From NCBI GenBank assembly GCA_964344035.1, contig CAYFLK010000011.1, positions 339 to 64,338 of the forward strand: 64,000 nt of DNA, written 5' to 3'. This DNA comes from an uncultured Pseudomonadota bacterium (GTDB lineage Bacteria > SAR324 > NAC60-12). Shown here one piece after another: positions 27,908 to 56,443 of the stretch; within the stretch, counting starts at the first letter, position 1; every line of letters starts with the position of its first letter. The notes under the pieces are model-generated. The model saw only the letters and a program-made list of their open reading frames with translations, searched no databases and had not been told where the DNA came from. The translations under genes and the position numbers were made by a program.

Positions 27908-27911
27908 TCCG

Positions 27912-39199: not shown

Positions 39200-39208
39200 G
39201 GAATTTCA

Positions 39209-39577
39209 ATGGAAACCCCTGCGGTCTCCGAACAAGGGTTCGCGGAAACCCGCGAACCCATGCGGAAACCTAAAGCGTTTGCCATCCTCGTTTCAACTTT
39301 CGCCCTGCTATGGGTCTTCGCGGTGTATGCCGGGCCCTGGCTGGCGGAACGGACCCCGGTGATGAAAGAAATCGTCCAGGTTGTCGAGGAACGGGATATC
39401 AACGCAAACGCTTATTTTTATAGCGAGATTGAAGCTTCCTACGACGGCGAAAATTATCTCAGGGAATCAATGGATCTAACCAGTCAAGAAAGGGGAAAAG
39501 GAGGATTTTTCTTTTTCTCCGGGGTTGCGATCTGCGTACTGATACTCTGGTTCGGGTTTCGCCATCTGCCGATGTGA
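39209..39577 (+). CDS. small membrane protein, two TM helices
   Basis: 122 aa. Two hydrophobic segments (AFAILVSTFALLWVFAVYAG and FFFFSGVAICVLILWFGF). Directly downstream of the transporter gene. Confidence 0.45.
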   Translation: METPAVSEQGFAETREPMRKPKAFAILVSTFALLWVFAVYAGPWLAERTPVMKEIVQVVEERDINANAYFYSEIEASYDGENYLRESMDLTSQERGKGGFFFFSGVAICVLILWFGFRHLPM

Positions 39578-39655
39578 ACACGAAATCTAATTCAACCTTT
39601 CACAAAACCCGGAAAAGCGCGCGGCGTTTCTCCGGGTTTTTCATTTCTGCACCGG

Positions 39656-40713: not shown

Positions 40714-42096
40714 ATGAAGATTACGCTCCCGAGGCTGATGATTTCCGCAACCCACAAAAGCGCGGGCAAAACTACGCTCAGTCTGGGTTTGCTTAGTCAG
40801 TTCAGGGAAGCGGGTATGAAGCTCGGGGCATTCAAAAAAGGTCCGGACTACATTGACCCGATGTGGCTGCGTCGGGCCTGCGGGCGGGAGTGTTACAACC
40901 TGGACCCGTTTCTTATGCAAGAGGAAGGCTGCATCGATTCCTTTGTGCGCAACACTTCAGGTTGCGATGCAGCGCTGATCGAAGGCAATCACGGTCTTCA
41001 TGACGGCATGGCCCTGGACGGTTCGAACAGCAGCGCCGGTCTGGCCTCCGGCCTGAATCTTCCTGTCCTGCTGGTAGTCGACAGCCGTGGAATGAACCGC
41101 GGCGCAGCGGCGGTTGTCATCGGAATGCAGCAGATGCAGCCCCGGGTCCGGATTGCAGGGGTGGTGCTCAACCGTACAAAGAGCAAACGGCAGGAAGACA
41201 AGCAGCGACTTGCCATTGAACACCACTGCGGCATTCCCGTGCTGGGAGCAATCAGGGATGAACAGGCGGTTGCCATCAAAGAACGTCATCTGGGTTTGAC
41301 CACTGTGGAAGAAACAGGTGAAGCGGACCGGATAATTCAAGATGCATCCGAACTTGTTGCTCAGACCTGTGACATCGACGCGATACGTTCCCTGTTCAAT
41401 GAAGCGCCTCCATTGGAAAACTTAAGCATTGTTGCCGGCAGAAATCCAGTTGAGGAAAAGGTCCGGATTGGGGTGTTTCGTGACGCGGCCTTCTGTTTTT
41501 ACTATCCGGATAACCTGCAGGCCCTGCGTGACCAGGGCGCGAGCCTGGTTTTCATCGATTCGCTGCACGACCGGTCCCTGCCGGAACTGGACGGGCTGTA
41601 TATCGGGGGAGGGTTCCCGGAATCATTTTTTTCACAACTTGGCGACAATAAAGGCCTGATCAGCGACCTGCGGGAACTGGTCCGTGGTGGAATACCCCTG
41701 TATGCTGAATGCGGTGGACTGATCTACCTCTGCGAATCCGCCCATTATCAAGGACAAAAGCACAAACTGGCTGGAGTGCTTCCGTACGAAATCGGGTTCA
41801 ATAAACGGCCGCTCGGCTACGGATATATAGATCTCGAAAGCAAGCGCGAGAGCCGCTGGTTCGGCAAACAGGCAAGGTTCAAAGCCCATGAGTTCCATTA
41901 CTCGAAACCGATCGGGCAGGGATCTCGCGGCACATACCAATTCAACGTAATCAGGGGGTATGGCATCAACGGCAAGAAGGATGGAATCCTGAAGCGGAGT
42001 GTGTTTGCTTCCTATGCTCATTTGCATGCCCTAGCCACTCCGGTTTGGGCGAAAAGTTTTGTCGGTCTCGCGCAGGAATACAGCGCCCATGCATGA
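40714..42096 (+). CDS. dsrN: cobyrinic acid a,c-diamide synthase homologue DsrN (siroheme amidase)
   Basis: 460 aa. CbiA/CobB N-terminal ATPase (ISATHKSAGKTTLSLGLL) plus a C-terminal glutamine amidotransferase domain (GGFPE, C at LYAECGGLIYL). It heads the dsr cluster. Confidence 0.8.
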   Translation: MKITLPRLMISATHKSAGKTTLSLGLLSQFREAGMKLGAFKKGPDYIDPMWLRRACGRECYNLDPFLMQEEGCIDSFVRNTSGCDAALIEGNHGLHDGMALDGSNSSAGLASGLNLPVLLVVDSRGMNRGAAAVVIGMQQMQPRVRIAGVVLNRTKSKRQEDKQRLAIEHHCGIPVLGAIRDEQAVAIKERHLGLTTVEETGEADRIIQDASELVAQTCDIDAIRSLFNEAPPLENLSIVAGRNPVEEKVRIGVFRDAAFCFYYPDNLQALRDQGASLVFIDSLHDRSLPELDGLYIGGGFPESFFSQLGDNKGLISDLRELVRGGIPLYAECGGLIYLCESAHYQGQKHKLAGVLPYEIGFNKRPLGYGYIDLESKRESRWFGKQARFKAHEFHYSKPIGQGSRGTYQFNVIRGYGINGKKDGILKRSVFASYAHLHALATPVWAKSFVGLAQEYSAHA

Positions 42097-42160
42097 AGAT
42101 GCCCGCTTAACGGCATCATGGGGCAATGCCTGTGTAAGACTGCTTCCGACTTTTGCAGTG

Positions 42161-42231
42161 GAATGGTTTTGGAAATAGTCAGCGATAGTTTCGTTGTCGT
42201 CGGGAGGTGCTCGACCCTTTCCAAAACCATT
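42161..42231 (+). promoter_or_regulatory. perfect 14-bp inverted repeat AATGGTTTTGGAAA ... TTTCCAAAACCATT in the dsrN-dsrC intergenic leader
   Basis: Read directly. A ~43-nt loop separates the arms. It lies 75 nt upstream of the dsrC start. It is either an operator or an mRNA stem. Confidence 0.45.
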
Positions 42232-42305
42232 TGCACGGCAAGAGGCCCAATAAATTTCCAGGCACAATGCCGGGGATGTTTTTTAACACAACCAAGGAGT
42301 AAGCC

Positions 42306-42641
42306 ATGACACTTGAACTGGATGGAAAAACCTATGACACCGATGAAAACGGTTACCTGCTCAATCTATCGGATTGGACCAGTGACCTCGCCGGACAACT
42401 GGCGAAGCTGGAGCATATTGATATGACGGAAAAGCACTGGGAAATCGTCAATTTCCTGAGGAATTACTACGAGGAGTACCAGATTGCTCCGGCGGTGAAG
42501 GTGCTGACCAAGGAAATAGCGAAACTGAACGACATCAAACGGAAAGAGGCTTCAACATTCCTCTATGATCTTTTTCCCAAGGGACCAGCGCTGCAGGCCT
42601 GCAAAATTGCCGGCTTGCCCAAACCAACTGGCTGTGTCTGA
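42306..42641 (+). CDS. dsrC: dissimilatory sulfite reductase gamma subunit / sulfur-carrier DsrC
   Basis: 111 aa. The C-terminus CKIAGLPKPTGCV has the two DsrC cysteines 10 residues apart, with the second cysteine penultimate. TusE/DsrC fold. Confidence 0.9.
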   Translation: MTLELDGKTYDTDENGYLLNLSDWTSDLAGQLAKLEHIDMTEKHWEIVNFLRNYYEEYQIAPAVKVLTKEIAKLNDIKRKEASTFLYDLFPKGPALQACKIAGLPKPTGCV

Positions 42642-42803
42642 ATTTCCGCAACAAGGTGGACTGCCGGACGGAGTTTTTTCTCAAAATCCGATCCGCCGTG
42701 ATTTATTCAGGCCAAAAGCTGAAGGCGGCGTCATCCGGATGAGGCGGAAGCCGACTCCGGCGTTTACTCTCAAAACCCTTATTCAAAAACGGAAGAGGTA
42801 ATT

Positions 42804-44045
42804 ATGGAAGTGGCAGAACAAAGCGGAACCGAAGCTGAAGCGAAAACGCAGGAACAGGACGATAAGTTCCTTAACCCAACACCTATGCTGGATGAACTGG
42901 AGGAAGGCCCATGGCCAAGCTTCATCACAGGGCTCAAGGAACTTGCCGAACGTACAAAGAAACCGATGCTTCGCGGGGTGATGGACCAGCTCGAATATTC
43001 TTACCAGACCAGAATGGGATACTGGAAAGGCGGACTGGTTACCGTGGAGGGTTATGGGGGAGGGATAATCGCCCGTTATTCCATGGTCAAAGACAAGATC
43101 CCGGAAGCCTCTGAGTTTCACACTTTTCGTGTGCAGGCGTCTCCGGGGCTGGTCTACAACACCAAGGCGCTGCGCAAACTCTGCGACATCTGGGAGGAAC
43201 ATGGATCCGGACTGATTGCATTGCACGGACAAACCGGGGACGTGATGCTTCAGGGCATCAAGGACACCGAGACCCAGGCGTGTTTTGACGAAATCAACCA
43301 GGCAGGCTGGGACATGGGCGGCGCGGGCGCTGGAATGCGTACCGGCGTTTCCTGCATCGGCCAGGCCCGCTGTGAACAGGCCTGTTACGACACTCTCAAA
43401 ATGCATGAGCGTGTGATGAAGGAATATGTAAGCGATGTCCACCGCCCGGAATTCAACTACAAGTTCAAGTTCAAGTTCTCCGGATGTCCAAACGATTGCA
43501 CGAACGCGATTTTTCGGTCAGATTGCGCGGTGATCGGAATGTGGCGCGATTCCATCCAGATTGACAAACAAGCCGCAAAAGCCTGGATTGAACAGAAAGG
43601 AATGGACAATCTGGTCAACAACGTTATCAGCCGTTGTCCCACCAAAGCGATAACTCTTAAGGACGGTGAACTCGAGATAGACAACAAAAATTGTGTACGC
43701 TGCATGCACTGCCTGAATGTCATGCCCAAAGCCCTATCTCCCGGGAAAGAACGGGGAATTGCGGTGCTCCTTGGGGGGAAAAACATCCTCAAGGTAGGCG
43801 CCATGGGCGGAACAATGGTAGTGCCCTTCATGAAGATGGAAACCGACGAAGACATCGAGGAATTCATCGAGCTGATGGACAACGTGATGGAGTGGTGGGA
43901 TGACAACGGTCTTGACCACGAACGGCTCGGAGAAACGCTTGAACGGGTCGGCCTGAAACATTTTCTTGATGCAATGGACTTGGAGCCGACTGCCGACATG
44001 GTCGCCCATCCGCGGACAAACCCCTATTTCAAAGCCGCCTACTAA
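42804..44045 (+). CDS. dsrA: dissimilatory sulfite reductase alpha subunit
   Basis: 413 aa. Sirohaem-[4Fe-4S] Cys clusters (CIGQARCEQAC) and a ferredoxin insert (CPNDCTNAI, CVRCMHC). Followed by dsrB. Confidence 0.9.
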   Translation: MEVAEQSGTEAEAKTQEQDDKFLNPTPMLDELEEGPWPSFITGLKELAERTKKPMLRGVMDQLEYSYQTRMGYWKGGLVTVEGYGGGIIARYSMVKDKIPEASEFHTFRVQASPGLVYNTKALRKLCDIWEEHGSGLIALHGQTGDVMLQGIKDTETQACFDEINQAGWDMGGAGAGMRTGVSCIGQARCEQACYDTLKMHERVMKEYVSDVHRPEFNYKFKFKFSGCPNDCTNAIFRSDCAVIGMWRDSIQIDKQAAKAWIEQKGMDNLVNNVISRCPTKAITLKDGELEIDNKNCVRCMHCLNVMPKALSPGKERGIAVLLGGKNILKVGAMGGTMVVPFMKMETDEDIEEFIELMDNVMEWWDDNGLDHERLGETLERVGLKHFLDAMDLEPTADMVAHPRTNPYFKAAY

Positions 44046-44076
44046 TTAACCATCGACCCAAATTCAGGAGAGTACC

Positions 44077-45153
44077 ATGGCCATTGAACGAGCATGGAAA
44101 ACGGTTGAATCCGGACCGTATGACTACCAGGAAGGCCTTCATCCGGTTATCGTAAAGAACTACGGGAAATGGGCCTATCATGAGGAACCGAAACCCGGGG
44201 TCTTGAAACATGTTGCTGAAAACGGAGACGTTCTCTGGACGGTCCGTGCCGGCACGCCCCGTCAGGATTCCGTGGATTTCGTGCGCAGGCTCTGCGATGT
44301 CGCGGACAAGTACGCAGACGGCTTTCTGCGTTTCACCGTGCGCAGCAACGTAGAATACATGACCCCCGATGAAGACAAAGTGCAGCTGCTGATTGATGAG
44401 CTGGAAGGAATGGGACTGCCGGTGGGAGGGACCGGTCCTTCGGTCTCCCAGGTCGCCCACACCCAGGGATGGCTGCATTGCGACATACCCGCTTCGGACG
44501 CATCCGGAGTGGTGAAATCAATGATGGACGCGCTCATAGACGATTTCAAATCCATGCGCATGCCTAACCGGGTGAAACTGGTCACCCAGTGCTGTGAACT
44601 TAACTGCGGTGGGCAGGGCGACATATCGATCATTGTCAAACACACCCGCCCGCCGCGCATCAACCACGAAATCCTCGGAGAAGTCTGTGAACTTCCCAAG
44701 GCCGTCGCCCGCTGTCCGGTGGCCGCGATTCGCCCGACGGTTGTCAACGGCAAGCGTTCGCTGATGGTTGACGAAGAGAAATGCATGTACTGCGGCGCCT
44801 GCTTCGGGGCCTGCCCGGCAATGGAAATCAATCATCCGGAACATTCTAAATTTGCCGTCTGGGTTGGCGGAAAGAACTCGAACGCGCGCAGCAGACCTTC
44901 CCTCGGATACCTGGTGGCCCACAACCTGCCCAACAATCCTCCGCGCTGGCCCGAGATCAACGATGTGGTCAAACGCATCCTTGAAGCCTACAGAAACGGC
45001 GGCCGCCACTGGGAACGCCTGGGTGAGTGGATCGACCGCATCGGCTGGAAGAACTTTTTTGCGGAAACCGGTCTGACCTTCGACGAGGACATGATCGACA
45101 ATTACCGTCACGCGCGGACGACCTTCAACCAGTCCGCACATGTTCGATTCTAA
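44077..45153 (+). CDS. dsrB: dissimilatory sulfite reductase beta subunit
   Basis: 358 aa. Motifs CCELNCGGQGD and CPVAAI, CMYCGACFGACP are the DsrB cluster and ferredoxin motifs. Confidence 0.9.
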   Translation: MAIERAWKTVESGPYDYQEGLHPVIVKNYGKWAYHEEPKPGVLKHVAENGDVLWTVRAGTPRQDSVDFVRRLCDVADKYADGFLRFTVRSNVEYMTPDEDKVQLLIDELEGMGLPVGGTGPSVSQVAHTQGWLHCDIPASDASGVVKSMMDALIDDFKSMRMPNRVKLVTQCCELNCGGQGDISIIVKHTRPPRINHEILGEVCELPKAVARCPVAAIRPTVVNGKRSLMVDEEKCMYCGACFGACPAMEINHPEHSKFAVWVGGKNSNARSRPSLGYLVAHNLPNNPPRWPEINDVVKRILEAYRNGGRHWERLGEWIDRIGWKNFFAETGLTFDEDMIDNYRHARTTFNQSAHVRF

Positions 45154-45168
45154 CGGAAGGAGCAGGTC

Positions 45169-46965
45169 ATGACCACCAAAACCATTGAATCCAATCCGAT
45201 CCTCGATTTCGCGGAGGCTTACGAGTTCCCTGAGTTTAATGAAGAAAAAGGAACAAAAAAAGTTGTCGCTTTCGGAGATCAGAGCCACAAATGCCCGGTT
45301 TACCTCCGGCAGGAGCCGCCTTGCAACGAAGGATGTCCGGCGGGGAACGACATCCGCGCCTGGCTGACGATCGTCCAGCAGACGGAATTGAAGAAGCGCG
45401 GCTGGGAGGAATCCTATGAACTGCTGTGGCGGGAAGTTAGCAAAACCACCCCCCTGCCCGCGGTCTGCGGACGTGTCTGTCCACATCCCTGTGAACCGGT
45501 ATGCAACCGTAATGAAAAAGAAGGAGCGGTGAACATCAATGCCTACGAACGCTGGATCGGGGATTATGCCATCCAGCACGGGCTTGATCATGAGAAGCTT
45601 ACCAATGAGGTGAAACCCCAGAAAATAGCGGTCGTCGGGTCCGGACCGGCCGGGTTGAGCTGCGCGTTTCAAATGGCGCGGCGTGGGTACCCGGTGACCA
45701 TCTTCGAATCATTCGATAAACCCGGAGGCATGCTGCGTTACGGCATTCCCCCCTACCGCCTGCCGCGCGACATCATCGATGCGGAGGTGGCTGCGATTGA
45801 AAGAATGGGGGTGGATATCCGTTGCAACACTGTCATTGGCGAGGACATCAGCCTCGATGATTTGAAAGCCGAATATGATGCAGTCTTCCTCGGAATCGGC
45901 GCCCACAAGGGTATTTCACTGGGTTTCGACGGAGAAGACGCATCGAATGTGATGAGCGGAGTCGAGTTTCTTAATCGGGTCAATGCCGGCGAGATGATGG
46001 AAGTGGGAAATAATGTGGTGATCATCGGAGGGGGCGATACGGCGATTGACGCCGCCCGCGTTTCCCTCCGGCTCAGTGCATTGGACGGTGGGCAGGCAGT
46101 TTTCGACGCCGCCCGGGTCTCACGGCGGCTGGGTGCGAAAGTGACCATTCTATACCGGCGCACCCGCGAAGAGATGCCGGCCATCGACAGGGAGGTAGAC
46201 GAGGCCCTCGAAGAAAACATTGATATCCAGTACCTCTCCGCGCCGGTAGCTATCCGCACTGAAAACGGCAAGGCGGTGGCGGTTAAATGCCTGCGCATGG
46301 AACTGGGGGAGCCTGATGAAAGCTGCCGCCGCCGCCCGGTCCCGATTGAAGGATCGGAATTCGAGGTTGAATGCAGCACCCTCATCCCGGCTGTCAGCCA
46401 AGAACCTGACTGGCGGGACGCCGATAGATACGTCAGCGGCAAAAACTGGCTGAATCCCGGAGCTGACGGGACGGTTGAAGAGGGGGTCTATGCGGGTGGG
46501 GATGCCATCGAGCTGGGATTGGCGTGTATTGCCATCGGCAATGGCCGCAAGGCCGCTGAACAGATGCATGCCAAGTTTTCCGGAGAACAACCGCCCCGGA
46601 CGCAATGGGTGAAAACAGTCCCTCATGAGAAGCTGCGCCTGGAACATTATGCGTCGTGTGAACGCAACAAACGCGGATACCTTTCTCCCGAAGAAAGGTT
46701 GGCGGGTGGACTTGATCTCGAAATCGACAAGGGTATCAGCGAAGAACAGTTCAGGGAAGAAGCCGGACGCTGCATGAGCTGCGGCCTGTGTTTCGAGTGC
46801 TATGAGTGCATGATGTTCTGTCCGCAGACTGCGATTACCAGGTTTACGGAGAATCCTGTCGGCGAAGTGATGTACACCTATTACAACAAATGTGTTGGAT
46901 GTCATCTCTGCGCGGTAGTATGTCCCTGTAATTATATCCAGATGGGTATGTCCGATGAACTCTGA
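45169..46965 (+). CDS. dsrL: DsrL, NAD(P)H:acceptor oxidoreductase (glutamate-synthase small-subunit-like, with C-terminal ferredoxin domain)
   Basis: 598 aa. N-terminal Fe-S Cys motif (CPVYL..CNEGCPAGN). FAD motif KIAVVGSGPAGLSCA. NAD(P) motif VVIIGGGDTAIDAARV. C-terminal CMSCGLCFECYEC..CPQ / CVGCHLCAVVCPC. Confidence 0.8.
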   Translation: MTTKTIESNPILDFAEAYEFPEFNEEKGTKKVVAFGDQSHKCPVYLRQEPPCNEGCPAGNDIRAWLTIVQQTELKKRGWEESYELLWREVSKTTPLPAVCGRVCPHPCEPVCNRNEKEGAVNINAYERWIGDYAIQHGLDHEKLTNEVKPQKIAVVGSGPAGLSCAFQMARRGYPVTIFESFDKPGGMLRYGIPPYRLPRDIIDAEVAAIERMGVDIRCNTVIGEDISLDDLKAEYDAVFLGIGAHKGISLGFDGEDASNVMSGVEFLNRVNAGEMMEVGNNVVIIGGGDTAIDAARVSLRLSALDGGQAVFDAARVSRRLGAKVTILYRRTREEMPAIDREVDEALEENIDIQYLSAPVAIRTENGKAVAVKCLRMELGEPDESCRRRPVPIEGSEFEVECSTLIPAVSQEPDWRDADRYVSGKNWLNPGADGTVEEGVYAGGDAIELGLACIAIGNGRKAAEQMHAKFSGEQPPRTQWVKTVPHEKLRLEHYASCERNKRGYLSPEERLAGGLDLEIDKGISEEQFREEAGRCMSCGLCFECYECMMFCPQTAITRFTENPVGEVMYTYYNKCVGCHLCAVVCPCNYIQMGMSDEL

Positions 46966-46985
46966 TCCCCTTTCAGGAGACTCAC

Positions 46986-47351
46986 ATGTATGAAAAACTG
47001 ATCGGCATGGTCGAAGATGCAGTTGATCTTTCCCGCCGCTGGGCCCAGTCAGGCTGGAAGACACGCTTTGGCGAGCGTGGGGTGGAAGCCTGTTCTCTCT
47101 CAGAGGCCCTGGACCTTCCACCCAATTTTGTCTATCGTGAGGAAGCCGTCGATTACTGGACCCAGGTGCAGATGATTGGCAGCGATGCGGCCGAATCCGG
47201 GAAAAAAGCGATTGAGGCCTTAAAAAACGGGGACCTTAAGCGTGCCGAGGATTCTGTTTATTTCTCAATGTACATTGAAAAACCCTATGCGCCCAACAGC
47301 AAAACCTGGAAGCCGGTGTACGAGGCAGTCAAACAGGAGATGAACGGATAG
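46986..47351 (+). CDS. hypothetical protein embedded in dsr cluster
   Basis: 121 aa and soluble, with no recognisable motif. RBS GGAGA upstream. It occupies the dsrL-tusA gap. Confidence 0.5.
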   Translation: MYEKLIGMVEDAVDLSRRWAQSGWKTRFGERGVEACSLSEALDLPPNFVYREEAVDYWTQVQMIGSDAAESGKKAIEALKNGDLKRAEDSVYFSMYIEKPYAPNSKTWKPVYEAVKQEMNG

Positions 47352-47464
47352 GTCGATAGTTAAAAAGACAAAAACCTCTTTGTTCCATAAGCAGGTGAAG
47401 TCCGTTTTATGGATCGAACCGCCTGGGTGTTCCCAACTATTTAACCAAAAAAAGGAGACTATAT

Positions 47465-47704
47465 ATGAGTGAGGAAATCAAATTTGACCAGGAACTCGAC
47501 TGCAGCGGACTTTCCTGTCCCCTGCCGGTCCTGAAAACCAAAAAAGCAATTAATACCCTCAATTCCGGCGATGTGCTTAAGGTGATTTCCACCGATCCCG
47601 GATCGAACAAGGATATGCCTTCATGGAGCAAACGCACCGGCAACCCGATCCTCAAGACCGAGGATCAGTCGGGGGCCTTCATTTTTTACATCCAGCGCAA
47701 ATGA
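47465..47704 (+). CDS. tusA: TusA-family sulfurtransferase
   Basis: 79 aa. LDCSGLSCPLPVLKTKKAI has the CPxP persulfide-carrying motif. RBS AAGGAGA upstream. Confidence 0.85.
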   Translation: MSEEIKFDQELDCSGLSCPLPVLKTKKAINTLNSGDVLKVISTDPGSNKDMPSWSKRTGNPILKTEDQSGAFIFYIQRK

Positions 47705-47728
47705 GCACCTGACCTCACTGGGACAAGC

Positions 47729-48088
47729 ATGAAATTTGGAATACTTATCAAAGAAGGCCCCTACACACACCAGGCATCCGACAGCGCCTTCCGCTTTGTC
47801 AGGACCGCCCTTGAAAAGGGACACACGATCGAGGGGGTGTTCTTGTACAACGACGGCGTTAACAATGCAACCAAACTGATGGACCCTCCCCAGGACGACC
47901 GACACCTGTCAAATCTCTGGTCCGAACTCGGTGGTGAATTGGGAGACGAAATCATGGTCTGTATTGCCGCCGCAAAACGACGGGGGATTGTGGAGGAGGT
48001 GATCCCGAAAAACACATCCATCACAGGTTTGGGGGAGTTGACCGACTTGACCATCCGTGCTGATCGCCTGGTCACTTTTGGAGATTGA
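47729..48088 (+). CDS. dsrE: DsrE (sulfur relay protein, DsrEFH complex)
   Basis: 119 aa. MKFGILIKEGPYTHQAS.. is the DsrE/TusD fold. The conserved active Cys lies in IMVCIAAAKRRG. Confidence 0.85.
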   Translation: MKFGILIKEGPYTHQASDSAFRFVRTALEKGHTIEGVFLYNDGVNNATKLMDPPQDDRHLSNLWSELGGELGDEIMVCIAAAKRRGIVEEVIPKNTSITGLGELTDLTIRADRLVTFGD

Positions 48089-48092
48089 TGCC

Positions 48093-48482
48093 ATGGAAGA
48101 GTACGATTACGACGATGACGAAATAGTAAAGAAGATCATGCATGTCATGCGGCGTGCCCCGCACGGCACAATCTATACCTATGAAGGATTGGAAATGATC
48201 CTCATCATGGCATCCTACGATCAGGACATCACCGTCGTCTTCATTGACGACGGGGTGTATGCGCTGAAAAAGGACCAGGACACCAGCGCTATCGGCATCA
48301 AAGGATTTGCGAAAACATTCCTGGCTCTGGACGGGTACGATGTTGAGAAGCTTTATGTCGATCAGCAGTCACTGGAGGAGCGGGGACTGACGGAAGATGA
48401 CCTTGTGGTGCCGGTAGAAGTTATGAGTGCCGAAGAAATCGGCAGATTGATGACCGAACAGGACGAGGTGATCCATCACTGA
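48093..48482 (+). CDS. dsrF: DsrF (sulfur relay protein)
   Basis: ATG at 48093 follows GGAGA. 129 aa, TusC/DsrF-like. The ORF track extends it to 48057, overlapping dsrE. Confidence 0.75.
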   Translation: MEEYDYDDDEIVKKIMHVMRRAPHGTIYTYEGLEMILIMASYDQDITVVFIDDGVYALKKDQDTSAIGIKGFAKTFLALDGYDVEKLYVDQQSLEERGLTEDDLVVPVEVMSAEEIGRLMTEQDEVIHH

Positions 48483-48556
48483 AGTTCCATCAGTTAATCT
48501 GAAGCAAGTCGCTTCCGTGACCTGTTTGTTCTAAAACCCGTATTGGATGGATTCCG

Positions 48557-48850
48557 ATGCTTCACACCATCAATAAATCCCCTTTTACATCAAATACATT
48601 TGAAACATGTCTTCGTTTTCTGCGGTCCGGGGATCCGGTATTGTTCTATGAAGACGGCGTCTACACCGTGCAGACTTCCCACAAGTTTTCCGGGAGGATA
48701 GCAGAGCTGCAGGCATCCAACCCGGTATTCGCCCTGAAGCCCGACCTCGAAGCTAGGGGGATTGCTGACACTGTTGAGGGAGTAACCCTGATTGACTACG
48801 GAGGTTTTGTTGATCTCGTCGAAGAACACACAGTCAACAGCTGGCTGTGA
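48557..48850 (+). CDS. dsrH: DsrH (sulfur relay protein)
   Basis: 97 aa. Conserved N-terminal Cys in TCLRFLRSGD. TusB/DsrH size. Confidence 0.8.
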   Translation: MLHTINKSPFTSNTFETCLRFLRSGDPVLFYEDGVYTVQTSHKFSGRIAELQASNPVFALKPDLEARGIADTVEGVTLIDYGGFVDLVEEHTVNSWL

Positions 48851-48902
48851 GGAGGCATAGAAAACGCTGATAATTATTTCCGGCTTTTGGCTGGGAGAGA
48901 AA

Positions 48903-49529
48903 ATGAGTGACGCACTGAATTACCTGCTAAAAGCCCGTCCCGAGGCAATGGGCTCTTATTTTGCCTTCCTCAAACAGGCGGGTACGCATCTCGATCAACG
49001 ATCACGTGACTTGATTTCGGTGATCACCAAGGTGGCCGTGCAGACCGAATCAGGTTTTCGGCAATATCTCTCACGCGCGTTGCGCAACGGCTGTACGTCT
49101 GATGAAGTGTTGGATGCGCTGCTGATGGCGTTTCCGGTGCTCGGGCTGGCAAAAATCACCTGGGCAGTGGAGATAATTCTTGAAATGGACATACCGGAGT
49201 TTCGTCAGGAAGGGCTTGACGCAAAACCGGAATGGCGCTCAGTCAGCAGCCTCGAAGAAATTCCGTTCGGGGAGGCGGCCTATTACGAGGTAGATAACCG
49301 GCAGGTGTTCGTTTTTCGTACTGAGGATGAAATTCGTGTTTATGACAGCCGCTGTCCGCACCAGGTAACCAACATCCCCCATCTCGCCCTGGAGGGCACA
49401 CGTTTGACCTGCCCCAAGCACCAGTGGGCATTTGACATTCAAAGCGGTGAATGCATAGACAAGGGGCGGCTTCCACTGCGGAGTTTTGAATGCAGGGAGG
49501 AAAACGGGCAGCTGCAAGCATACTGGTAA
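48903..49529 (+). CDS. fusion protein: AhpD-like carboxymuconolactone-decarboxylase-family domain + Rieske [2Fe-2S] domain
   Basis: 208 aa. The N-terminal ~100 aa are an AhpD/CMD-family helical fold. The C-terminus CPHQVTN...(17 aa)...CPKHQW is the Rieske CxH..CxxH motif. Confidence 0.6.
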   Translation: MSDALNYLLKARPEAMGSYFAFLKQAGTHLDQRSRDLISVITKVAVQTESGFRQYLSRALRNGCTSDEVLDALLMAFPVLGLAKITWAVEIILEMDIPEFRQEGLDAKPEWRSVSSLEEIPFGEAAYYEVDNRQVFVFRTEDEIRVYDSRCPHQVTNIPHLALEGTRLTCPKHQWAFDIQSGECIDKGRLPLRSFECREENGQLQAYW

Positions 49530-49596
49530 CCCTGTCCATCTGCAATTTGCTGACGCTGCAATACAGCTCGGGCAGCGCATGAAGGAATGTAAGTTA

Positions 49597-50976
49597 ATGG
49601 AACAGCTTCCGGTTTTTATGAATCTGCGCGGCCAATCCTGTCTGGTTGCCGGGGAAGAAAATAAAGCCTACCACAAAATCCTCCTCCTGCTAAAAGCAGA
49701 AGCCAGGGTTTATCTGCTCACCCAATCGCCCTGCCGGAGAATACGCGAATTGTTTCATCAAAACCGTCTGGTTTCCGTGGATGAACCACTTGAGAAACTT
49801 GAACTGAGCCGTTTTCGACTGGTGATCTGCGCTTCAGAAAATTCAGCACTCAACGAGTTGCTGGCAAGAAGGGCGATGGAACTGAACATCCCGGTCAACG
49901 TGGTGGATCAGCCTGATCTCTGCACCTTCACCATTCCCTCGATCGTGGACCGTTCACCGCTGATCGTCGCGGTTTCTTCCAGTGGCAAATCCCCGACCCT
50001 TTCCAAGTTCGTGCGCAGGAAGATCGAAGCTCTGCTGCCCCACACCTATGGTCCACTGACCGAGATGCTGGGGAATTTCCGCAAACAGACCCGGAACCGC
50101 ACAAGCGACTATTCTGAAAAAAAACGTTTTTGGGAACGCCTGCTATCCGGGCCTCTTGTCGATCTCTTCCTTTCCGGGAAGGAACAGACCGCGCGGGATG
50201 TGATGCAGCATGAACTAGAACAAGCATCAAAACCTGAAAAACGTGGACAGGTCGTGCTTGCCGGCGCAGGTCCGGGCGACCCGGAGTTGCTTACCCTGCG
50301 CGCTCTGCGACACATTCAAAACGCGGACGTGATTGTCTATGACCGCCTGGTTTCAAGTCCGGTACTTGACTATGCAAATCCGGACGCCGAAATGGTGTAT
50401 GCGGGCAAGAAGACCGGGGACCACTACCTTTCGCAACAGGATATCAACCGCAAACTGATACGGCTGGCACAGGAAGGCAAATCCGTGGTTCGTCTCAAGG
50501 GAGGAGATCCATTTATTTTCGGACGCGGAGGGGAGGAACTGGAGGAGTTGATGGATGCCGGGATCGATTTCCAGGTCATCCCCGGCATCACTGCCGCCGG
50601 GGGATGCTGCGCCTATGCCGGGATCCCCCTCACTCACCGCGATTTTGCCCAGTCAGTCGTGTTTGTCACTGCCCACGGCAGGGATGAAGAACTTGAGTTG
50701 AACTGGGAAAGCCTGACCCAGCCGAACCAGACCTTGGTTTTTTACATGGGCCTTGCCAATGCCGAACTGGTAAGCCGCGGTCTGATCACACACGGACTTC
50801 CCGCCGACACCCCGGCCGCACTTGTGCAGAACGGGACCACCTTCAACCAGAAAGTTGCCGTCGGCAATATTGAAACGCTTCCGCGACTGATCCAAGAGCA
50901 GGGTTTCCAGCGTCCGACACTGATCATAGTAGGACATACCGTGACCCTGCATGAGAAGCTGCAGTGGTACAACTGA
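49597..50976 (+). CDS. cysG: siroheme synthase (CysG-like: precorrin-2 dehydrogenase/ferrochelatase + uroporphyrinogen-III C-methyltransferase)
   Basis: Start ATG 49597 (MEQLPVFMNLRGQSCLVAGEENKA). N-terminal NAD Rossmann. C-terminal SUMT motif VVLAGAGPGDPELLTLRA..DVIVYDRLV. Confidence 0.8.
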   Translation: MEQLPVFMNLRGQSCLVAGEENKAYHKILLLLKAEARVYLLTQSPCRRIRELFHQNRLVSVDEPLEKLELSRFRLVICASENSALNELLARRAMELNIPVNVVDQPDLCTFTIPSIVDRSPLIVAVSSSGKSPTLSKFVRRKIEALLPHTYGPLTEMLGNFRKQTRNRTSDYSEKKRFWERLLSGPLVDLFLSGKEQTARDVMQHELEQASKPEKRGQVVLAGAGPGDPELLTLRALRHIQNADVIVYDRLVSSPVLDYANPDAEMVYAGKKTGDHYLSQQDINRKLIRLAQEGKSVVRLKGGDPFIFGRGGEELEELMDAGIDFQVIPGITAAGGCCAYAGIPLTHRDFAQSVVFVTAHGRDEELELNWESLTQPNQTLVFYMGLANAELVSRGLITHGLPADTPAALVQNGTTFNQKVAVGNIETLPRLIQEQGFQRPTLIIVGHTVTLHEKLQWYN

Positions 50977-51002
50977 ACTACGTCTAATAACGGACCCGGG
51001 AC

Positions 51003-51500
51003 ATGAGCGAAATTCACCACTTCCTCAGGGAAAACCGGGAAGCAGTGCTGGATCAATGGCTCACCAGCGCCTTCAAAATGTTCCCCGAACAGTCCAGGCT
51101 GCTTATGGTCAGCAATCCGGACCCGTTCACCAGCCCCATCCGTCATGCGCTCAGCAAGGGTATGGCGCAACTGCTGGACCGGTTTTGTGTAGAAGAACCC
51201 ATAACCGGGGGAAAAGAGCTTGAGGAACTCGGGCGGCTCCTTGCGGTTCAGGAGATGCCGCCCTCCCAGTCCCTTCCCTTCATTTTTGAATTGAAAACCG
51301 TGGTCCGGAAACTTGCAGGGAAAAATAATAAACGCTCCGGATTCTCCGACAGGGACTGGGATGAATTTCAGGACCGGCTTGAGCAGGTGCTTTTCCATCT
51401 GTTCGATTGTTATCTGAAACATCGAGAAAAGATATACCAACTGAAAGCCGAAGAAATGAAGCAACGGACATACATGCTGCTTAGGAGGGCCACCCAATGA
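51003..51500 (+). CDS. dsrT: DsrT-like protein (RsbRD N-terminal-like domain)
   Basis: 165 aa, helical. Its position immediately before dsrMKJOP matches dsrT in other dsr loci. FLRENREAVLDQWL is a globin-sensor/RsbR N-like start. Its stop overlaps the dsrM start (ATGA). Confidence 0.5.
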   Translation: MSEIHHFLRENREAVLDQWLTSAFKMFPEQSRLLMVSNPDPFTSPIRHALSKGMAQLLDRFCVEEPITGGKELEELGRLLAVQEMPPSQSLPFIFELKTVVRKLAGKNNKRSGFSDRDWDEFQDRLEQVLFHLFDCYLKHREKIYQLKAEEMKQRTYMLLRRATQ

Positions 51501-52489
51501 AAGCAATCGCCCCATTGTTAACGGTTTTGGCAATCGCGCTGCTGGCGTATCTTGGCGCGGGAGTAGCCGGGCTAACCGGCCTGTTTGGAATCGTCATTCC
51601 CTATCTTTCGTTTGCACTTTTCATAGGCGGCTTCGTGTACCGCATCTTTGACTGGGCTGGCTCGCCGGTGCCGTTTCGCATTCCGACCACTGCCGGACAG
51701 TCTCGTTCGCTCGACTGGATCCGCCAAGACAAACTGGAAAGTCCGTCCGGGTTCTGGGGAGTGACGGGCCGTGTGTTGCTTGAAGTGCTGCTGTTCCGTT
51801 CACTCTTCCGTAACACCAAGGCGGAAATCACCGCCGGTCCAAACCTCGCCTACGGTTCAAGCAAGTGGCTTTGGCTAGGCGGGCTGGCGTTTCACTGGTC
51901 GATGCTGATCATTGTCCTACGCCATTACCGTTTTTTTCTGGCGCCGATTCCGGGGTTTCTGGAAGCGCTGGATGCGGCGGACGGTTTTCTCCAGATCACC
52001 CTGCCGGCCTTTTACCTAACCGATCTGGTGTTCGTGGCCGCTGTCACATACCTGTTCGCGCGCAGACTGGTGGACGCGAAAATAAATTACATTTCCCTGG
52101 CCAGTGATTTCTTTCCGCTCTACCTGCTGTTGGGCATCGCGCTGAGCGGCATCTGGATGCGTTACTTCGACAAGGTCGATGTCGCGCAAGTAAAGCTGCT
52201 GATGCAGAGCCTGATTGCCTTCAGCCCGGAACTTCCGGGACCAATCGGCTGGATGTTCTATGTCCACCTGTTCATGGTATGCGTGCTTGCCGCGTATTTC
52301 CCGTTCAGTAAACTGATGCACATGGGCGGCATCTTCCTCAGCCCAACTAGAAACCTGGCAACCAACAGCCGTGAATACAGACACGTCAACCCATGGAATC
52401 CTCAGATAAAAATACGCACTTACAGAGAATACGAGGACGAATTCCGCGAAAAAATGAAAAAAGCGGAACTGCCGATTGAAAGGGGATGA
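51497..52489 (+). CDS. dsrM: DsrM, NarI-like dihaem cytochrome b membrane subunit
   Basis: 330 aa. Five transmembrane helices with conserved His in helices 2 and 5. It overlaps dsrK by 4 nt. Confidence 0.8.
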   Translation: MKAIAPLLTVLAIALLAYLGAGVAGLTGLFGIVIPYLSFALFIGGFVYRIFDWAGSPVPFRIPTTAGQSRSLDWIRQDKLESPSGFWGVTGRVLLEVLLFRSLFRNTKAEITAGPNLAYGSSKWLWLGGLAFHWSMLIIVLRHYRFFLAPIPGFLEALDAADGFLQITLPAFYLTDLVFVAAVTYLFARRLVDAKINYISLASDFFPLYLLLGIALSGIWMRYFDKVDVAQVKLLMQSLIAFSPELPGPIGWMFYVHLFMVCVLAAYFPFSKLMHMGGIFLSPTRNLATNSREYRHVNPWNPQIKIRTYREYEDEFREKMKKAELPIERG

Positions 52490-54132
52490 ACATGACCACA
52501 AACCCACCACCAGTTGCAGAACTGGAAAAATCCATCGAGGAAACTCAGAATCTCCTCAAAGACCGCCGCCCTCCCGGGGAATGGCCGGATCTGCCCGTGA
52601 AGGTTGAAGAGGGCAAATGGTGCTACCCGGCGAAACCGGAAATTCTTGAAAGACACGGTTTCCCAAACCCGAGGAAGTGGGATGTTGAAGAGGCGGACTG
52701 GCAGCTTCCGGACAACTGGGAGGAAATCATCTTTGAAGGGATGCGTGAACGGCTTAAAAAATTCCGTTCGTTCAAACTGTTCATGGATGTCTGTGTACGC
52801 TGCGGAGCATGCGCGGACAAGTGCCATTTCTTTCTCGGCACCGGCGACCCGAAAAACATGCCGGTGCTGCGCGCTGAACTGCTCCGTTCAGTATACCGAG
52901 GGGAATTTACGCTGGCGGGGAAGTTTCTGAAGGAAATGGTCGGCGCGCGGAAGCTGACCAAGGAGGTGATCAAGGAGTGGTTTCTTTATTTCCATCAATG
53001 CACCGAGTGCAGGCGGTGCTCGGTTTACTGCCCGTTTGGCATCGATACCGCGGAAATCACTATCCTCGGGCGTGAACTGCTGCACCTGGTGGGCGTCAAC
53101 ATCAACTGGATCCTTGAACCTGCGGCTAACTGCAACCGCACGGGCAATCACCTCGGCATCGAACCGCATACTTTCAAACAGGTGGTGGAATCCCTTGTCG
53201 AAGATATCGAAGACCTTACCGGTATCGAGGTCGAACCAACTTTCAACCGCAAAGGCGCCGAAATCCTCTTTATCACTCCCTCCGGAGATTTGTTTGCCGA
53301 TCCCGGAGTGTACACGATGATGGGATACATGCTCCTCTTTCACCACATCGGACTCGATTACACCCTCAGCACCTATGCTTCCGAAGGCGGGAATTTCGGG
53401 CTCTTTACTTCGCATGACACGATGAAGAAACTCAACGCAAAGATGTTTCATGAAGCTGAGCGATTGGGAGTCAAATGGATCCTGGGTGGGGAGTGTGGGC
53501 ACATGTGGCGTGTGGTGCACCAGTACATGGACACAATGAACGGTCCGGCGGATTTTCTGGAAGAACCGGTTTCCCCGATCACCGGCACCCGGTTCCGAAA
53601 TGCGGCATCGACAAGAATGGTGCATATCGCGGAATTCACTGCTGACCTGATACACCAGGGTAAGCTCAAGCTGGACCCGAGAAGGAATGATCATATAGTC
53701 TCCACCTTCCATGATTCATGCAACCCCGCCAGGGCGATGGGAATGCTTGAGGAGCCTCGGTATGTGCTGAGGAACGTTTGCAACAACTTCCATGAAATGC
53801 CCGAGAACACGATCCGGGAACATACTTTCTGCTGCGGCGCGGGAAGCGGTCTGAACACCGACGAGTTCATGGATACACGGATGCGTGGAGGATTCCCACG
53901 AGCGAACGCTGTCAGACACGTGCAGGAAAAGCATGATGTAAACGCGCTGGTAAACATCTGTGCCATTGATCGCGCCACTTTGCCTCCCCTGATGAAATAC
54001 TGGGTGCCGGAAGTCTCTGTATACGGCCTTCACGAACTGGTCGGCAATGCGCTGGCGATGGATGGAGAGGAAGAGCGGACCGAAGACCTGCGCGAGGATG
54101 AAATGGTTGAATTCGAGGAGGAAGATGAATGA
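52486..54132 (+). CDS. dsrK: DsrK, HdrD-like Fe-S protein with CCG domains
   Basis: 548 aa. Ferredoxin Cys motifs CVRCGACADKC and CTECRRCSVYCPFG. Cys-rich CCG regions FHDSCNPAR and FCCGAGSG. Confidence 0.85.
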   Translation: MNMTTNPPPVAELEKSIEETQNLLKDRRPPGEWPDLPVKVEEGKWCYPAKPEILERHGFPNPRKWDVEEADWQLPDNWEEIIFEGMRERLKKFRSFKLFMDVCVRCGACADKCHFFLGTGDPKNMPVLRAELLRSVYRGEFTLAGKFLKEMVGARKLTKEVIKEWFLYFHQCTECRRCSVYCPFGIDTAEITILGRELLHLVGVNINWILEPAANCNRTGNHLGIEPHTFKQVVESLVEDIEDLTGIEVEPTFNRKGAEILFITPSGDLFADPGVYTMMGYMLLFHHIGLDYTLSTYASEGGNFGLFTSHDTMKKLNAKMFHEAERLGVKWILGGECGHMWRVVHQYMDTMNGPADFLEEPVSPITGTRFRNAASTRMVHIAEFTADLIHQGKLKLDPRRNDHIVSTFHDSCNPARAMGMLEEPRYVLRNVCNNFHEMPENTIREHTFCCGAGSGLNTDEFMDTRMRGGFPRANAVRHVQEKHDVNALVNICAIDRATLPPLMKYWVPEVSVYGLHELVGNALAMDGEEERTEDLREDEMVEFEEEDE

Positions 54133-54505
54133 GCGTGTATTGATTTTCGGGGGACTGGCAATCTTCCTGCTGTTGGTCCTGTTCCCGTTCTGGCCGGACT
54201 CCGAACGCCACGCAAACCAGCCGCCGGCTCTGGCCATCAACACTGTGAAGGAGCAGTGCGTAGCTCCCACTGAGTTCATGCGAGCAAACCACATGCAGCT
54301 GCTCGATCAGTGGCGCGACGATGTGGTCCGCCGCGGGGAACGGGTGCATATCACCACGGACGGACGGACATTTGAAAAAAGCCTGACCCATACCTGCCTA
54401 AACTGTCACGAAAACAGGGAGATGTTTTGTGAGCAGTGCCATGGCACACTGAATGTACAGACCTATTGCTGGGAATGCCACGTCACCCCCATGGAGGTCC
54501 AATGA
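54125..54505 (+). CDS. dsrJ: DsrJ, periplasmic trihaem cytochrome c
   Basis: ATG 54125 ([17 protein letters not shown], a signal anchor). Three CxxCH motifs (CLNCH, CEQCH, CWECH). It overlaps the dsrK stop. Confidence 0.85.
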
Positions 54506-55272
54506 AAAATGAAAAACGCAGGGATTTCCTGAGAAAAACGGGTCTTGGCGCGCTTGCCGGGATTGGTGTGGCGGCGGGTCTAACCGCGCGGAAACAGGCT
54601 GAAGCGGAAAGTGCATCTGAAGTGCACCGGGCGGGCAAAGTGCGCTGGGGAATGGTAGTCGATGCACGGAAATGCCCGGACGAATGCACGAAATGCATTG
54701 ATGCATGTCACCTGGGCCACAACGTTCCGGAGTTTGATAACTCCAAAGACGAGATAAAGTGGGTCTGGAAAGCTCCGCGTGAAAAGGTTTTTCCCAGCAA
54801 GAGCATGCAGTTCTCGTCAAAACAGCAACGGCAACTGCCAATTCTCACCCTGTGCAACCACTGCGCGAACCCTCCCTGCACCCGCGTATGCCCGACTCAG
54901 GCGACTTTCAAACGCTGGGACGGAATCGTGCAGATGGATTTCCACCGCTGCATAGGCTGCCGTTTCTGCATGGCGGCCTGTCCTTACGGGTCACGCAGTT
55001 TCAACTGGCGGGATCCAAGGCCTGCGATCGGAAAAATAAATCCGGAATTTCCCACCCGGGAACGCGGGGTGGTTGAAAAATGCAACTTCTGCGTGGAAAG
55101 GCTGGAAAAGAAGAAACTCCCGTTGTGCGTGGAAAGCTGTCCGGAAAAAGCGCTGACGTTCGGGAACCTCAATGATCCGGATTCCGGAATCCGAAAAACT
55201 CTCCGGGAAAACCAGACCATCCAGCGCAAGCCTGAACTCGGGACCCGCCCTTCCGTCTTCTACATAACATGA
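54502..55272 (+). CDS. dsrO: DsrO, periplasmic ferredoxin-like 4Fe-4S subunit with Tat signal
   Basis: ATG 54502. Twin-arginine motif [16 protein letters not shown]. Four Cys clusters (CxxCxxx[35 protein letters not shown]...C). It overlaps the dsrJ stop (ATGA). Confidence 0.85.
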
Positions 55273-55279
55273 GGGAGCC

Positions 55280-56443
55280 ATGATTGAAAACGCACTCAAG
55301 GGAAACCGGCAATACTGGGGGCTTATCACGCTGCTCACGCTGCTGGTGCTGTTGGGCGTGCTTGCCTACAGCAGGCAACTGTCCGAGGGTTTGACAATTA
55401 CCGGCATGAGCAGGGATGTCAGCTGGGGAATTTACATTGCCCAGTTCACTTTCCTGGTCGGGGTCGCCGCCTCGGCGGTGATGGTAGTGCTCCCGTACTA
55501 TCTTCATGATTACAAGGAATTCGGAAAGGTGGTCCTGCTGGGGGAATTCCTCGCGGTGTCGGCGGTGACGATGTGCCTGATGTTCATCTTTGCAGACATG
55601 GGGAAACCCGAACGGGCGCTGAACATTATTTTCTATCCCAGTCCCAAATCGATCCTGTTCTGGGACATGATTTCACTCAGCGGATACCTGCTGCTCAACC
55701 TGGTGAGTGCGTGGGTGGTGCTCACCGCGGAAAGCAAGGGGGTGCCGCCGCCGGGTTGGATCAAACCGGTGATTTTCCTTTCCATCCCCTGGGCAGTCAG
55801 CATCCACACCGTCACTGCTTTCATCTATGCGGGTCTTCCCGGGCGTCACCTCTGGCTGACAGCGGTGCTTGCCCCGCGTTTTCTCGCTTCCGCTTTCTGT
55901 GCCGGACCGGCACTGCTGATCCTGCTGAGTCTTCTGCTGTGCAAATTCGCGAGTTATGACATTGGCGACAAGGCTATCCGCAAGCTGGCGGTGATTGTCA
56001 CCTATGCGGGAGTGATAAATTTCTTCCTGGTCGGGATGGAGTTTTTCACCGCCTTCTACAGCAGCATCCCCTCTCACATGCACGGATTGCAGTATCTCTT
56101 CGTCGGTTTAGAAGGCGGGAGCAATCTTGTGCCGTGGATCTGGTTTTCATTCATTATCGGCATCCTGTCAGTATTAATTCTCCTGTTTCCCAGTTTGCGC
56201 GCCGACACTCCATGGTTGGCATGGGCCTGCGCGGGGTTGTTCGTGTCGCTTTGGATCGACAAAGGGATCGGCTTGATCCTGGGAGGTTTTGTTCCCACGC
56301 CGATGGAAGAAGTGGTGGAATATACCCCGAGTTTCCTTGAATTAATCATCACTCTCGGCATCTGGGCTTTTGGTTTTCTCGTCCTCTCCATATTTTACAA
56401 AACCGTCATCAGCATCAAGCGCCGGAACCTCGGCGTAACCTGA
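55280..56443 (+). CDS. dsrP: DsrP, NrfD/PsrC-like integral membrane quinone-interacting subunit
   Basis: 387 aa with ~10 transmembrane helices. NrfD-family fold. Confidence 0.8.

Follow-up and report, generated by a model that had tools for sequence, protein, structure and literature searches.

Positions 40714-56443 of the 64,000-nucleotide stretch analysed here (the window) hold a complete dsr locus, encoding a dissimilatory sulfite reductase (Dsr) together with its sulfur-relay and electron-transfer partners, and in an uncultured SAR324 bacterium this locus probably serves as a working sulfur-oxidation operon of the reverse-Dsr (rDsr) kind. The locus consists of 18 consecutive co-linear open reading frames (ORFs), all on the + strand, in the order dsrN-C-A-B-L-X-tusA-dsrE-F-H-(CMD::Rieske)-cysG-dsrT-M-K-J-O-P; the set is confirmed from the sequence as complete and intact, its catalytic residues are kept, and its DsrA is of the oxidative type. 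The direction in which the system runs, the paths taken by its electrons and what X, DsrT and the CMD::Rieske fusion protein do in it we infer from the characterised Allochromatium and Chlorobaculum systems, from which the mechanism described below is drawn, and from the papers cited.

The nearest neighbours of the window DsrA are unnamed metagenome proteins and a ‘SAR324 cluster bacterium’ cluster from Tara and other marine samples (82-84% identity), and identity to Chlorobi/Chlorobiales proteins is 75-77%, whereas the reductive enzymes of A. fulgidus (3mm5_A) and D. norvegicum (2xsj_A) are only 46.5% and 43.9% identical. In a neighbour-joining (NJ) tree of the named matches, three gammaproteobacterial DsrA-like genes and these two reductive enzymes, the latter rebuilt from PDB alignments, the window sequence joins marine SAR324 with a bootstrap of 100%. 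The SAR324 clade is in turn nested in a group labelled SAR324, Chlorobi and Desulfobulbales, also with a bootstrap of 100%, and both reductive enzymes fall outside. This placement agrees with the trees of Klier et al. 2024, in which dsrD-lacking SAR324 stand beside Chlorobia in the oxidative group; the same bacteria carry dsrEFH adjoining dsrABL (PMC11406059). The gammaproteobacterial genes (L023, L033 and L064), used as proteobacterial references, are weak stand-ins for canonical rDsrA, since in L033 and L064 they are not followed by dsrB and L023 ends too early to tell. The exact DsrA sequence was found on this contig only, and a comparison with plasmids gave no match. The Desulfobulbales-labelled sequences (Desulfopila sp. 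IMCC35008 and Desulfobulbaceae metagenome-assembled genomes (MAGs)) are DsrA homologues within the SAR324/Chlorobi oxidative group, and an oxidative-type DsrA with DsrL-2 has been noted in Desulfopila and Desulforhopalus (Loffler 2020; PMC7596348).

Genes were assigned to families using NCBIfam equivalog or subfamily cut-offs (given below in bits), and Pfam for TusA, the CMD::Rieske fusion and dsrT. Start codons were moved relative to the longest ORFs for dsrF (48093), cysG (49579), dsrJ (54125) and dsrO (54502). The genes of the locus are as follows.

dsrN, 40714-42096, + strand: cobyrinic acid a,c-diamide synthase homologue (siroheme amidase); NF002204/TIGR00379, 420/408 bits, NCBIfam CobB-type cut-off 254.
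dsrC, 42306-42641, + strand: sulfur-carrier substrate protein; TIGR03342 (DsrC/TusE family), 147 bits, cut-off 54.
dsrA, 42804-44045, + strand: sulfite reductase alpha subunit, oxidative-type clade; TIGR02064, 512 bits, cut-off 393.
dsrB, 44077-45153, + strand: sulfite reductase beta subunit; TIGR02066, 476 bits, cut-off 342.
dsrL, 45169-46965, + strand: NAD(P)H:acceptor oxidoreductase, DsrL-2 type; NF009410/PRK12771 NAD(P)-binding Fe-S flavoprotein model, 610 bits, cut-off 516.
X (dsrU-like), 46986-47351, + strand: small protein, four-helix bundle; named from its position and homology to the ORF after dsrL elsewhere.
tusA, 47465-47704, + strand: sulfur carrier with Cys18 in a CPLP motif; PF01206, 89 bits.
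dsrE, 47729-48088, + strand: Cys78 present (MVC78IAAAKRRG); TIGR03012 (TusD/DsrE), 117 bits, cut-off 89.
dsrF, 48093-48482, + strand: TIGR03010 (TusC/DsrF), 140 bits, cut-off 94; start chosen from the junctions.
dsrH, 48557-48850, + strand: Cys18 present; TIGR03011 (TusB/DsrH), 104 bits, cut-off 49.
CMD-fold::Rieske [2Fe-2S] fusion, 48903-49529, + strand: 208 amino acids, PF02627 and PF00355; candidate accessory redox protein.
cysG, 49579-50976, + strand: siroheme synthase, a fused precorrin-2 dehydrogenase/ferrochelatase and uroporphyrinogen-III methyltransferase; NF007922, 570 bits, cut-off 400.
dsrT, 51003-51500, + strand: PF14361 RsbRD_N (Pfam); positional homologue before dsrM.
dsrM, 51497-52489, + strand: membrane dihaem cytochrome b; NF038037, 515 bits, cut-off 300.
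dsrK, 52486-54132, + strand: cytoplasmic Fe-S protein with a CCG motif at residue 449; NF045796, 738 bits, cut-off 400.
dsrJ, 54125-54505, + strand: periplasmic trihaem cytochrome c with three CxxCH motifs; NF038038, 148 bits, cut-off 100.
dsrO, 54502-55272, + strand: periplasmic Fe-S protein with a Tat signal (RRDFL); NF045797, 317 bits, cut-off 200.
dsrP, 55280-56443, + strand: NrfD-type membrane quinone-interacting subunit; NF045798, 470 bits, cut-off 350.

DsrC ends in CKIAGLPKPTGCV and keeps both conserved cysteines, Cys99 and Cys110, and it and DsrB each fall into a 90%-identity cluster with marine SAR324 proteins. All four domains of DsrL are detected (NCBIfam and Pfam). TusA is 80-86% identical to the same-position TusA of marine SAR324 loci, DsrN 56-61% identical to the product of the gene in the dsrN position of SAR324 and Chlorobiales loci, and DsrT 27-51% identical to that of the gene preceding dsrM in the same two groups. 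The reading frames meet in ATGA overlaps at dsrT/M, dsrM/K and dsrJ/O and in an 8-nucleotide overlap, ATGAATGA, at dsrK/J; the gap between dsrB and dsrL is only 15 nucleotides, so that no dsrD follows dsrB. The original prediction, made from the letters alone, had described a complete, co-linear dsr locus of the oxidative (reverse) type on one strand, with these same overlaps, with dsrL, dsrEFH and tusA present and with no dsrD after dsrB. Each of these points is borne out: the 18 ORFs and their junctions are as described, dsrL, dsrEFH and tusA have family matches above cut-off, with DsrE Cys78 and DsrH Cys18 kept, and DsrA lies in the SAR324/Chlorobi group, far from the two reductive enzymes. 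Neither inspection by eye of the 57 listed small ORFs of the window nor a Pfam search of ten small or unassigned ORFs found a DsrD-like ORF. A scan for promoters and terminators, which found fewer sites than in shuffled sequence, was uninformative. Independent assemblies of at least two ENA samples (project PRJEB17505) and of one Logan run, in addition to the NCBI record, contain an identical sequence, which is thus not an assembly accident. The contig measures 65.9 kb in NCBI, and its ENA entries are ERZ930062 and ERZ930070; a literature search turned up no papers for the project.

In the proposed model, sulfane sulfur would be handed on as a persulfide from TusA to Cys78 of DsrE in DsrEFH and then to DsrC, and the siroheme enzyme rDsrAB would oxidise the sulfur carried on DsrC to sulfite. 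Electrons would be passed to NADP+ via DsrL, for which, as a DsrL-2 with the YRR motif, use of NADP(H) is predicted, and also via DsrC/DsrK to the membrane complex DsrMKJOP and from there to the quinone pool. CysG is predicted to make the siroheme and DsrN to amidate it, and DsrT and the DsrU-like X would act as conserved accessory proteins.

DsrL proteins of type 2 are recognised by the residues YRR in their NAD(P) domain, and those of type 1A by long insertions (Loffler et al. 2020; PMC7596348). DsrL-1, a type confined to sulfur oxidisers, has no YRR, and the substrate-binding and linker domains of DsrL-2 are short. The original prediction had suggested deciding between DsrL-1 and DsrL-2, and by motif and alignment the window protein belongs to DsrL-2 and not to DsrL-1, with YRR at residues 329-331 (ILYRRTR, 327-333). 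The motif is also found in the DsrL of a Chlorobiales MAG (L007), 70% identical to that of the window, and is absent from the DsrL of marine SAR324 (L004/L005; 40% identity), of a SAR324 MAG (L008; 42%) and of L009 (40%). More closely related are the YRR-type DsrL proteins (77-79% identical) of two metagenome contigs, L092 (Tara) and L093 (63 kb), which carry the same operon. These two share with the window DsrL an 18-residue imperfect internal repeat, DAARVSLRLSA...DAARVSRRLGA, located at residues ~305-323 (window ~46080-46135) just before the YRR strand and absent from Chlorobiales and DsrL-1-like proteins; its conservation in both relatives indicates that the insert is a real feature of the window/L092/L093 DsrL subclade. 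A tandem-repeat search on the insertion found none, and what can be seen there is solely an imperfect duplication with a spacing of 54 nucleotides. On another contig, L095, the gene order is dsrN-dsrL-dsrC-dsrMKJOP with no dsrAB between the genes, and its DsrL is 51-52% identical to that of the window.

The main rival to an oxidative system, which we consider improbable, is that the locus runs reductively or bidirectionally, for example to reduce sulfite or sulfur or to disproportionate, with an NADPH-dependent DsrL-2 feeding DsrAB, an arrangement put forward for Desulfurella amilsii and ‘mixed’ SAR324. It is kept in consideration because of DsrL-2, dsrT and the mixed SAR324 genotypes. The YRR motif is the hallmark of DsrL-2; no other type has been found with reductive DsrAB, and the DsrL-2 of Desulfurella is specific for NADP(H) (PMC7596348). 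Sulfate reducers, too, have dsrT and all of dsrMKJOP, and the SAR324 phylum includes reductive and mixed dsr genotypes (PMC11406059). NCBIfam, moreover, names DsrMKJOP after sulfate reduction. Further points that weigh against the oxidative reading come from the window and the tree: genes for sox, sqr, fcc, apr, sat and soe are all missing from the 64 kb, the negative result for dsrD covers the window, so that a dsrD may lie elsewhere in the genome, the DsrA tree is an NJ tree with just two reductive references, and the direction of catalysis is not readable from sequence alone. DsrL type by itself does not discriminate direction. Set against the reductive rival are the position of DsrA with dsrD-lacking SAR324 and Chlorobi rather than with reductive enzymes, the presence in the operon of dsrEFH and tusA with intact cysteines, the lack of a dsrD after dsrB, and the company kept by the DsrL: outside L092/L093 its closest relative is that of the Chlorobiales MAG L007, whose DsrA clusters with those of Prosthecochloris and Chl. 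phaeobacteroides, established sulfur oxidisers that carry DsrL-2 (PMC7596348). In addition, DsrL-2A or DsrL-2B encoded directly downstream of oxidative DsrAB has been proposed as a marker of oxidation (Diao et al. 2023; PMC10591310), and the window appears to fit this pattern, the call here being DsrL-2 without a subcluster (2A/2B/2C).

Within the operon read as oxidative, dsrL stands apart, as all other genes are closer to those of marine SAR324 than to those of Chlorobiales, and marine SAR324 (f_NAC60-12) have been listed as ‘no dsrD, dsrL-1’ (Diao et al. 2023; PMC10591310). A Chlorobi-like dsrL amid otherwise SAR324-like genes implies, as far as sequence comparison can tell, that dsrL was exchanged in place between the two types. 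That the combination is instead an assembly or binning chimera of SAR324-like dsrAB and Chlorobi-like dsrL, as the identities of 70% to Chlorobiales and 40% to L004/L005 between a SAR324-like dsrB and X might suggest, is scarcely credible and was rejected, because the same contig comes from the independent assemblies named above, the gaps flanking dsrL are 15 and 20 nucleotides without disruption of a frame, the G+C content is continuous across the region, and the two independent contigs L092/L093 have the same dsrB-dsrL(YRR and 18-residue insert)-X-tusA arrangement at 77-87% identity.

The small protein X is 48-59% identical to the product of the ORF after dsrL in marine SAR324, in the SAR324 MAG GCA_015231825.1 and in Chlorobiales. 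In the Chlorobaculum tepidum cluster dsrNCABLUEFHTMKJOPVW this slot is occupied by ‘dsrU’ (10.1101/172254), whose function is listed as unknown (PMC6018796), and X is the likely counterpart of Chlorobi dsrU, as judged by its slot and its L007 homologue (48% identity). No Pfam or NCBIfam model matches X, and no cysteine or metal-binding motif is conserved in it. The family is small, with 36 representative clusters among 1.84 billion proteins, and its named members, from Chlorobium limicola DSM 245, other Chlorobium, Desulfoprunum benzoelyticum and a Magnetococcales MAG, are all annotated as ‘hypothetical’. An AlphaFold model (AF2; pLDDT 96.5) consists of a four-helix bundle and a β-hairpin, for which a fold search returned generic four-helix bundles only (plant invertase/pectin methylesterase inhibitors and copper-storage proteins), and hence no function is drawn from it. 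The siroheme genes can be compared in a similar way: in Chlorobi, dsrV and dsrW at the 3' end of the cluster are homologues of precorrin-2 dehydrogenase and uroporphyrin-III methyltransferase, respectively (PMC6018796), and cysG of the window, in which the predicted activities are fused, corresponds functionally to dsrVW. Since cysG would supply the functions of both genes, siroheme synthesis inside the cluster is standard, and only the position and the fusion differ. The original prediction had correctly noted the Chlorobi-like gene order, which matches that of L007 including the ORF after dsrL, but it had listed X, tusA before dsrE, the CMD::Rieske gene and cysG as insertions that are standard in neither the Chlorobi nor the Allochromatium layout. 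This has to be withdrawn for X, which fills the dsrU slot, and for cysG, with its dsrVW functions; it stands for tusA before dsrE and for CMD::Rieske, but both are shared by marine SAR324.

The second protein that calls for comment is the CMD::Rieske fusion. All 11 sequences compared have its Rieske ligands, C151-P-H153 and C170-P-K-H173, unchanged (PF00355, 48.8 bits). The CMD half has no CxxC and a single, non-conserved Cys64 (Ala in most Gammaproteobacteria), and is therefore not an AhpD-type peroxidase component; ‘AhpD-like’, the term first applied to this N-terminal domain, was an overstatement for a protein that lacks the AhpD catalytic motif. In a structural model (pLDDT 83.7) the Rieske half is similar to soluble Rieske ferredoxins and to NirD, which in siroheme nitrite reductase is the small subunit. 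The protein is probably a one-electron redox accessory. It has more than 4100 homologues, which among the matches listed are all 206-208 amino acids long and 65-76% identical, and a profile search of contigs (one genome per species) located it at at least 464 loci, with the matches listed all from Proteobacteria. The best 80 of these at least 464 loci belong to Chromatiaceae, Sedimenticola(ceae), Thiosymbion, tubeworm endosymbionts, Thioalkalivibrio denitrificans, Thiogranum, Lamprocystis, Thiohalomonadales, Acidiferrobacterales, Magnetospira and Rhodocyclales, all known as lineages that oxidise sulfur by the Dsr route. Gammaproteobacterial genomes mostly have the gene on its own amid housekeeping genes, and among the loci compared it is found inside a dsr operon only in SAR324.

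Some of these 80 loci have dsr-related genes in the neighbourhood. Seven of them, from Gammaproteobacteria (L010, L012, L014, L023, L033, L044, L088), have a DsrC/TusE-like gene of the single-cysteine kind at a distance of 0.1-10 kb from the fusion gene, and its product of ~99 amino acids ends in ...KYGGLPKPTGCV, with the last cysteine kept and the second absent. At four loci from gammaproteobacterial MAGs (L033, 12047-13324; L023; L064; L021) an orphan dsrA-like gene is located 1-4 kb away, which is 55-58% identical to the window DsrA and in L033 and L064 is not followed by a dsrB. In L093, by comparison, the fusion gene is a pseudogene remnant (13744-14200), in which the CMD half is deleted, MSDALNY is joined to the Rieske half and a stop codon interrupts the frame; CPH is changed to CPT and CPKH to CPKR, and both His ligands are gone. 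A literature search combining CMD, Rieske and dsr found no paper that mentions the fusion protein.

The link between the fusion and Dsr is thus suggestive, and the protein is not required in every lineage. We see about an even chance that the gene is no Dsr accessory at all and travels in the dsr operon of SAR324 as an unrelated passenger, as would fit with its mostly solitary position in Gammaproteobacteria, its decay in the closely related locus L093 and its absence from the Chlorobiales dsr loci and that of the SAR324 MAG L008. A passenger would, however, hardly be expected to be intact between dsrH and cysG both in the window and in abundant marine SAR324, nor to have as its named carriers, among the matches listed, almost exclusively lineages known as Dsr-type sulfur oxidisers; across phyla it is also of fixed length and, again among the matches listed, more conserved than DsrA between the same groups. 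A more far-reaching proposal, which we make tentatively and regard as rather unlikely as it stands, is that the fusion, with its 65-76% identity and fixed length across SAR324, Chromatiaceae, Sedimenticola, symbionts, Magnetospira and Rhodocyclales, may be an unrecognised, widely conserved accessory of Dsr-type sulfur oxidation, either a one-electron carrier or a partner of the siroheme enzyme, comparable to NirD with NirB. The SAR324 placement, between dsrH and cysG, would be the first genomic clue to such a role.

Several features of the window outside the locus touch on sulfur metabolism or adjoin the dsr genes. An organosulfur-catabolism cluster at 22124-29180 would release sulfite. Its features, and those of its surroundings and of the regions on either side of the dsr locus, are the following.

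16817-20495: TRAP-TAXI transporter.
22124-24289: ADP-forming acyl-CoA ligase.
24352-25959: thiamine pyrophosphate (TPP) enzyme.
25959-27158, minus strand: 3-sulfinopropanoyl-CoA desulfinase; NF042439, 662 bits, cut-off 600.
27267-27907: FitA-like/PIN (VapBC-type) toxin-antitoxin pair with a 4-nucleotide overlap, between the desulfinase and CoA-transferase genes.
27912-29180: family III CoA-transferase.
36166-40237, upstream of dsrN: a CxxCxxCC protein, a 587-residue protein of the YeiH/PF03601 ‘putative sulfate exporter’ family, a 122-residue protein without assignment and an NF038143 (HYxxLL) protein.
56797-58128, directly downstream of dsrP on the same strand: an ORF of 443 amino acids with no Pfam or NCBIfam match.

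The PF03601 protein has an N-terminal extension of ~225 amino acids to which no domain is assigned. A PF03601 gene also precedes tusA-dsrN in the Chlorobiales locus L007 (6269-7784), which may point to a transporter that is a conserved companion of the dsr genes.

With respect to the host, the best named matches of the UvrD/PcrA helicase encoded at 60890-62914 are all from ‘SAR324 cluster bacterium’, with 59% identity and the same length of 674 amino acids. This is the one housekeeping marker for the lineage, rRNA and ribosomal proteins being absent from the window. Because of the helicase and the nearest neighbours of the dsr proteins, the organism is assigned to SAR324, as a bacterium clearly divergent from the abundant marine clade.

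SAR324 ranks with the most abundant bacteria of the dark ocean, and sulfur-driven chemoautotrophy has been inferred from its dsr genes. With the window, a complete dsr locus in one contiguous piece is available for a divergent lineage of the group, and names can now be given to genes left unlabelled in published SAR324 dsr maps, namely those for the DsrU homologue, TusA, CMD::Rieske and CysG. What is new is that both DsrL types occupy the same slot of otherwise near-identical SAR324 operons, and as both types are found in oxidative operons of this phylum, DsrL typing alone is unfit for calls of direction there. The CMD::Rieske protein, as a candidate missing component of reverse Dsr, is a new lead, and the accepted pathway model is unchanged by these findings.

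The system itself, its occurrence in SAR324 and its Chlorobi-like order have already been published, and the identical architecture is abundant in marine data, where 272 blocks of the contig collection index the L004 DsrA. The rDsr system that has been characterised by genetics is that of Allochromatium vinosum, encoded by dsrABEFHCMKLJOPNRS. It shares with the window DsrAB, DsrEFH with DsrE-Cys78, a two-cysteine DsrC, DsrL, DsrMKJOP and DsrN, and differs in its gene order, in the presence of dsrR and dsrS, in the absence of dsrT/dsrU and in having neither tusA nor cysG inside the operon. The DsrL of A. vinosum is a DsrL-1A, with long insertions and a preference for NADH (PMC7596348).

The Chlorobi clusters (Chlorobaculum tepidum CT2251-CT2238; L007) are closer in layout, and have in common with the window the order N-C-A-B-L-U-E-F-H-T-M-K-J-O-P, with a dsrU-like gene after dsrL, dsrT before dsrM and siroheme-synthesis genes in the cluster. 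They differ in the location of tusA, which is found upstream of dsrN rather than between X and dsrE, in having separate dsrV and dsrW genes at the 3' end in place of a fused cysG between dsrH and dsrT, and in lacking a CMD::Rieske gene; the order in L007 is accordingly that of the window minus tusA (before dsrE), the fusion and cysG.

Closest in architecture are the dsrD-lacking marine SAR324 (L004/L005; Klier 2024, PMC11406059; Diao 2023, PMC10591310), in which all 18 genes stand in the order of the window, among them X, a tusA that precedes dsrE, CMD::Rieske and a cysG that precedes dsrT. In these and in L093, DsrA and DsrB are 82-87% and DsrC and DsrK 80-87% identical to those of the window, and the DsrAB of this SAR324 group, as in the window, belong to the oxidative clade next to Chlorobia. 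In contrast, the L004-type DsrL has no YRR motif and is DsrL-1-like (40% identity), whereas the window, L092 and L093 have the YRR-type DsrL-2 with the 18-residue insert. The genes flanking the operon also differ from those of marine SAR324, and the window helicase reaches no more than 59% identity with the best named homologues from SAR324. Among full-length relatives of the locus L093 is the closest, and its order is the same except for the decayed fusion gene.

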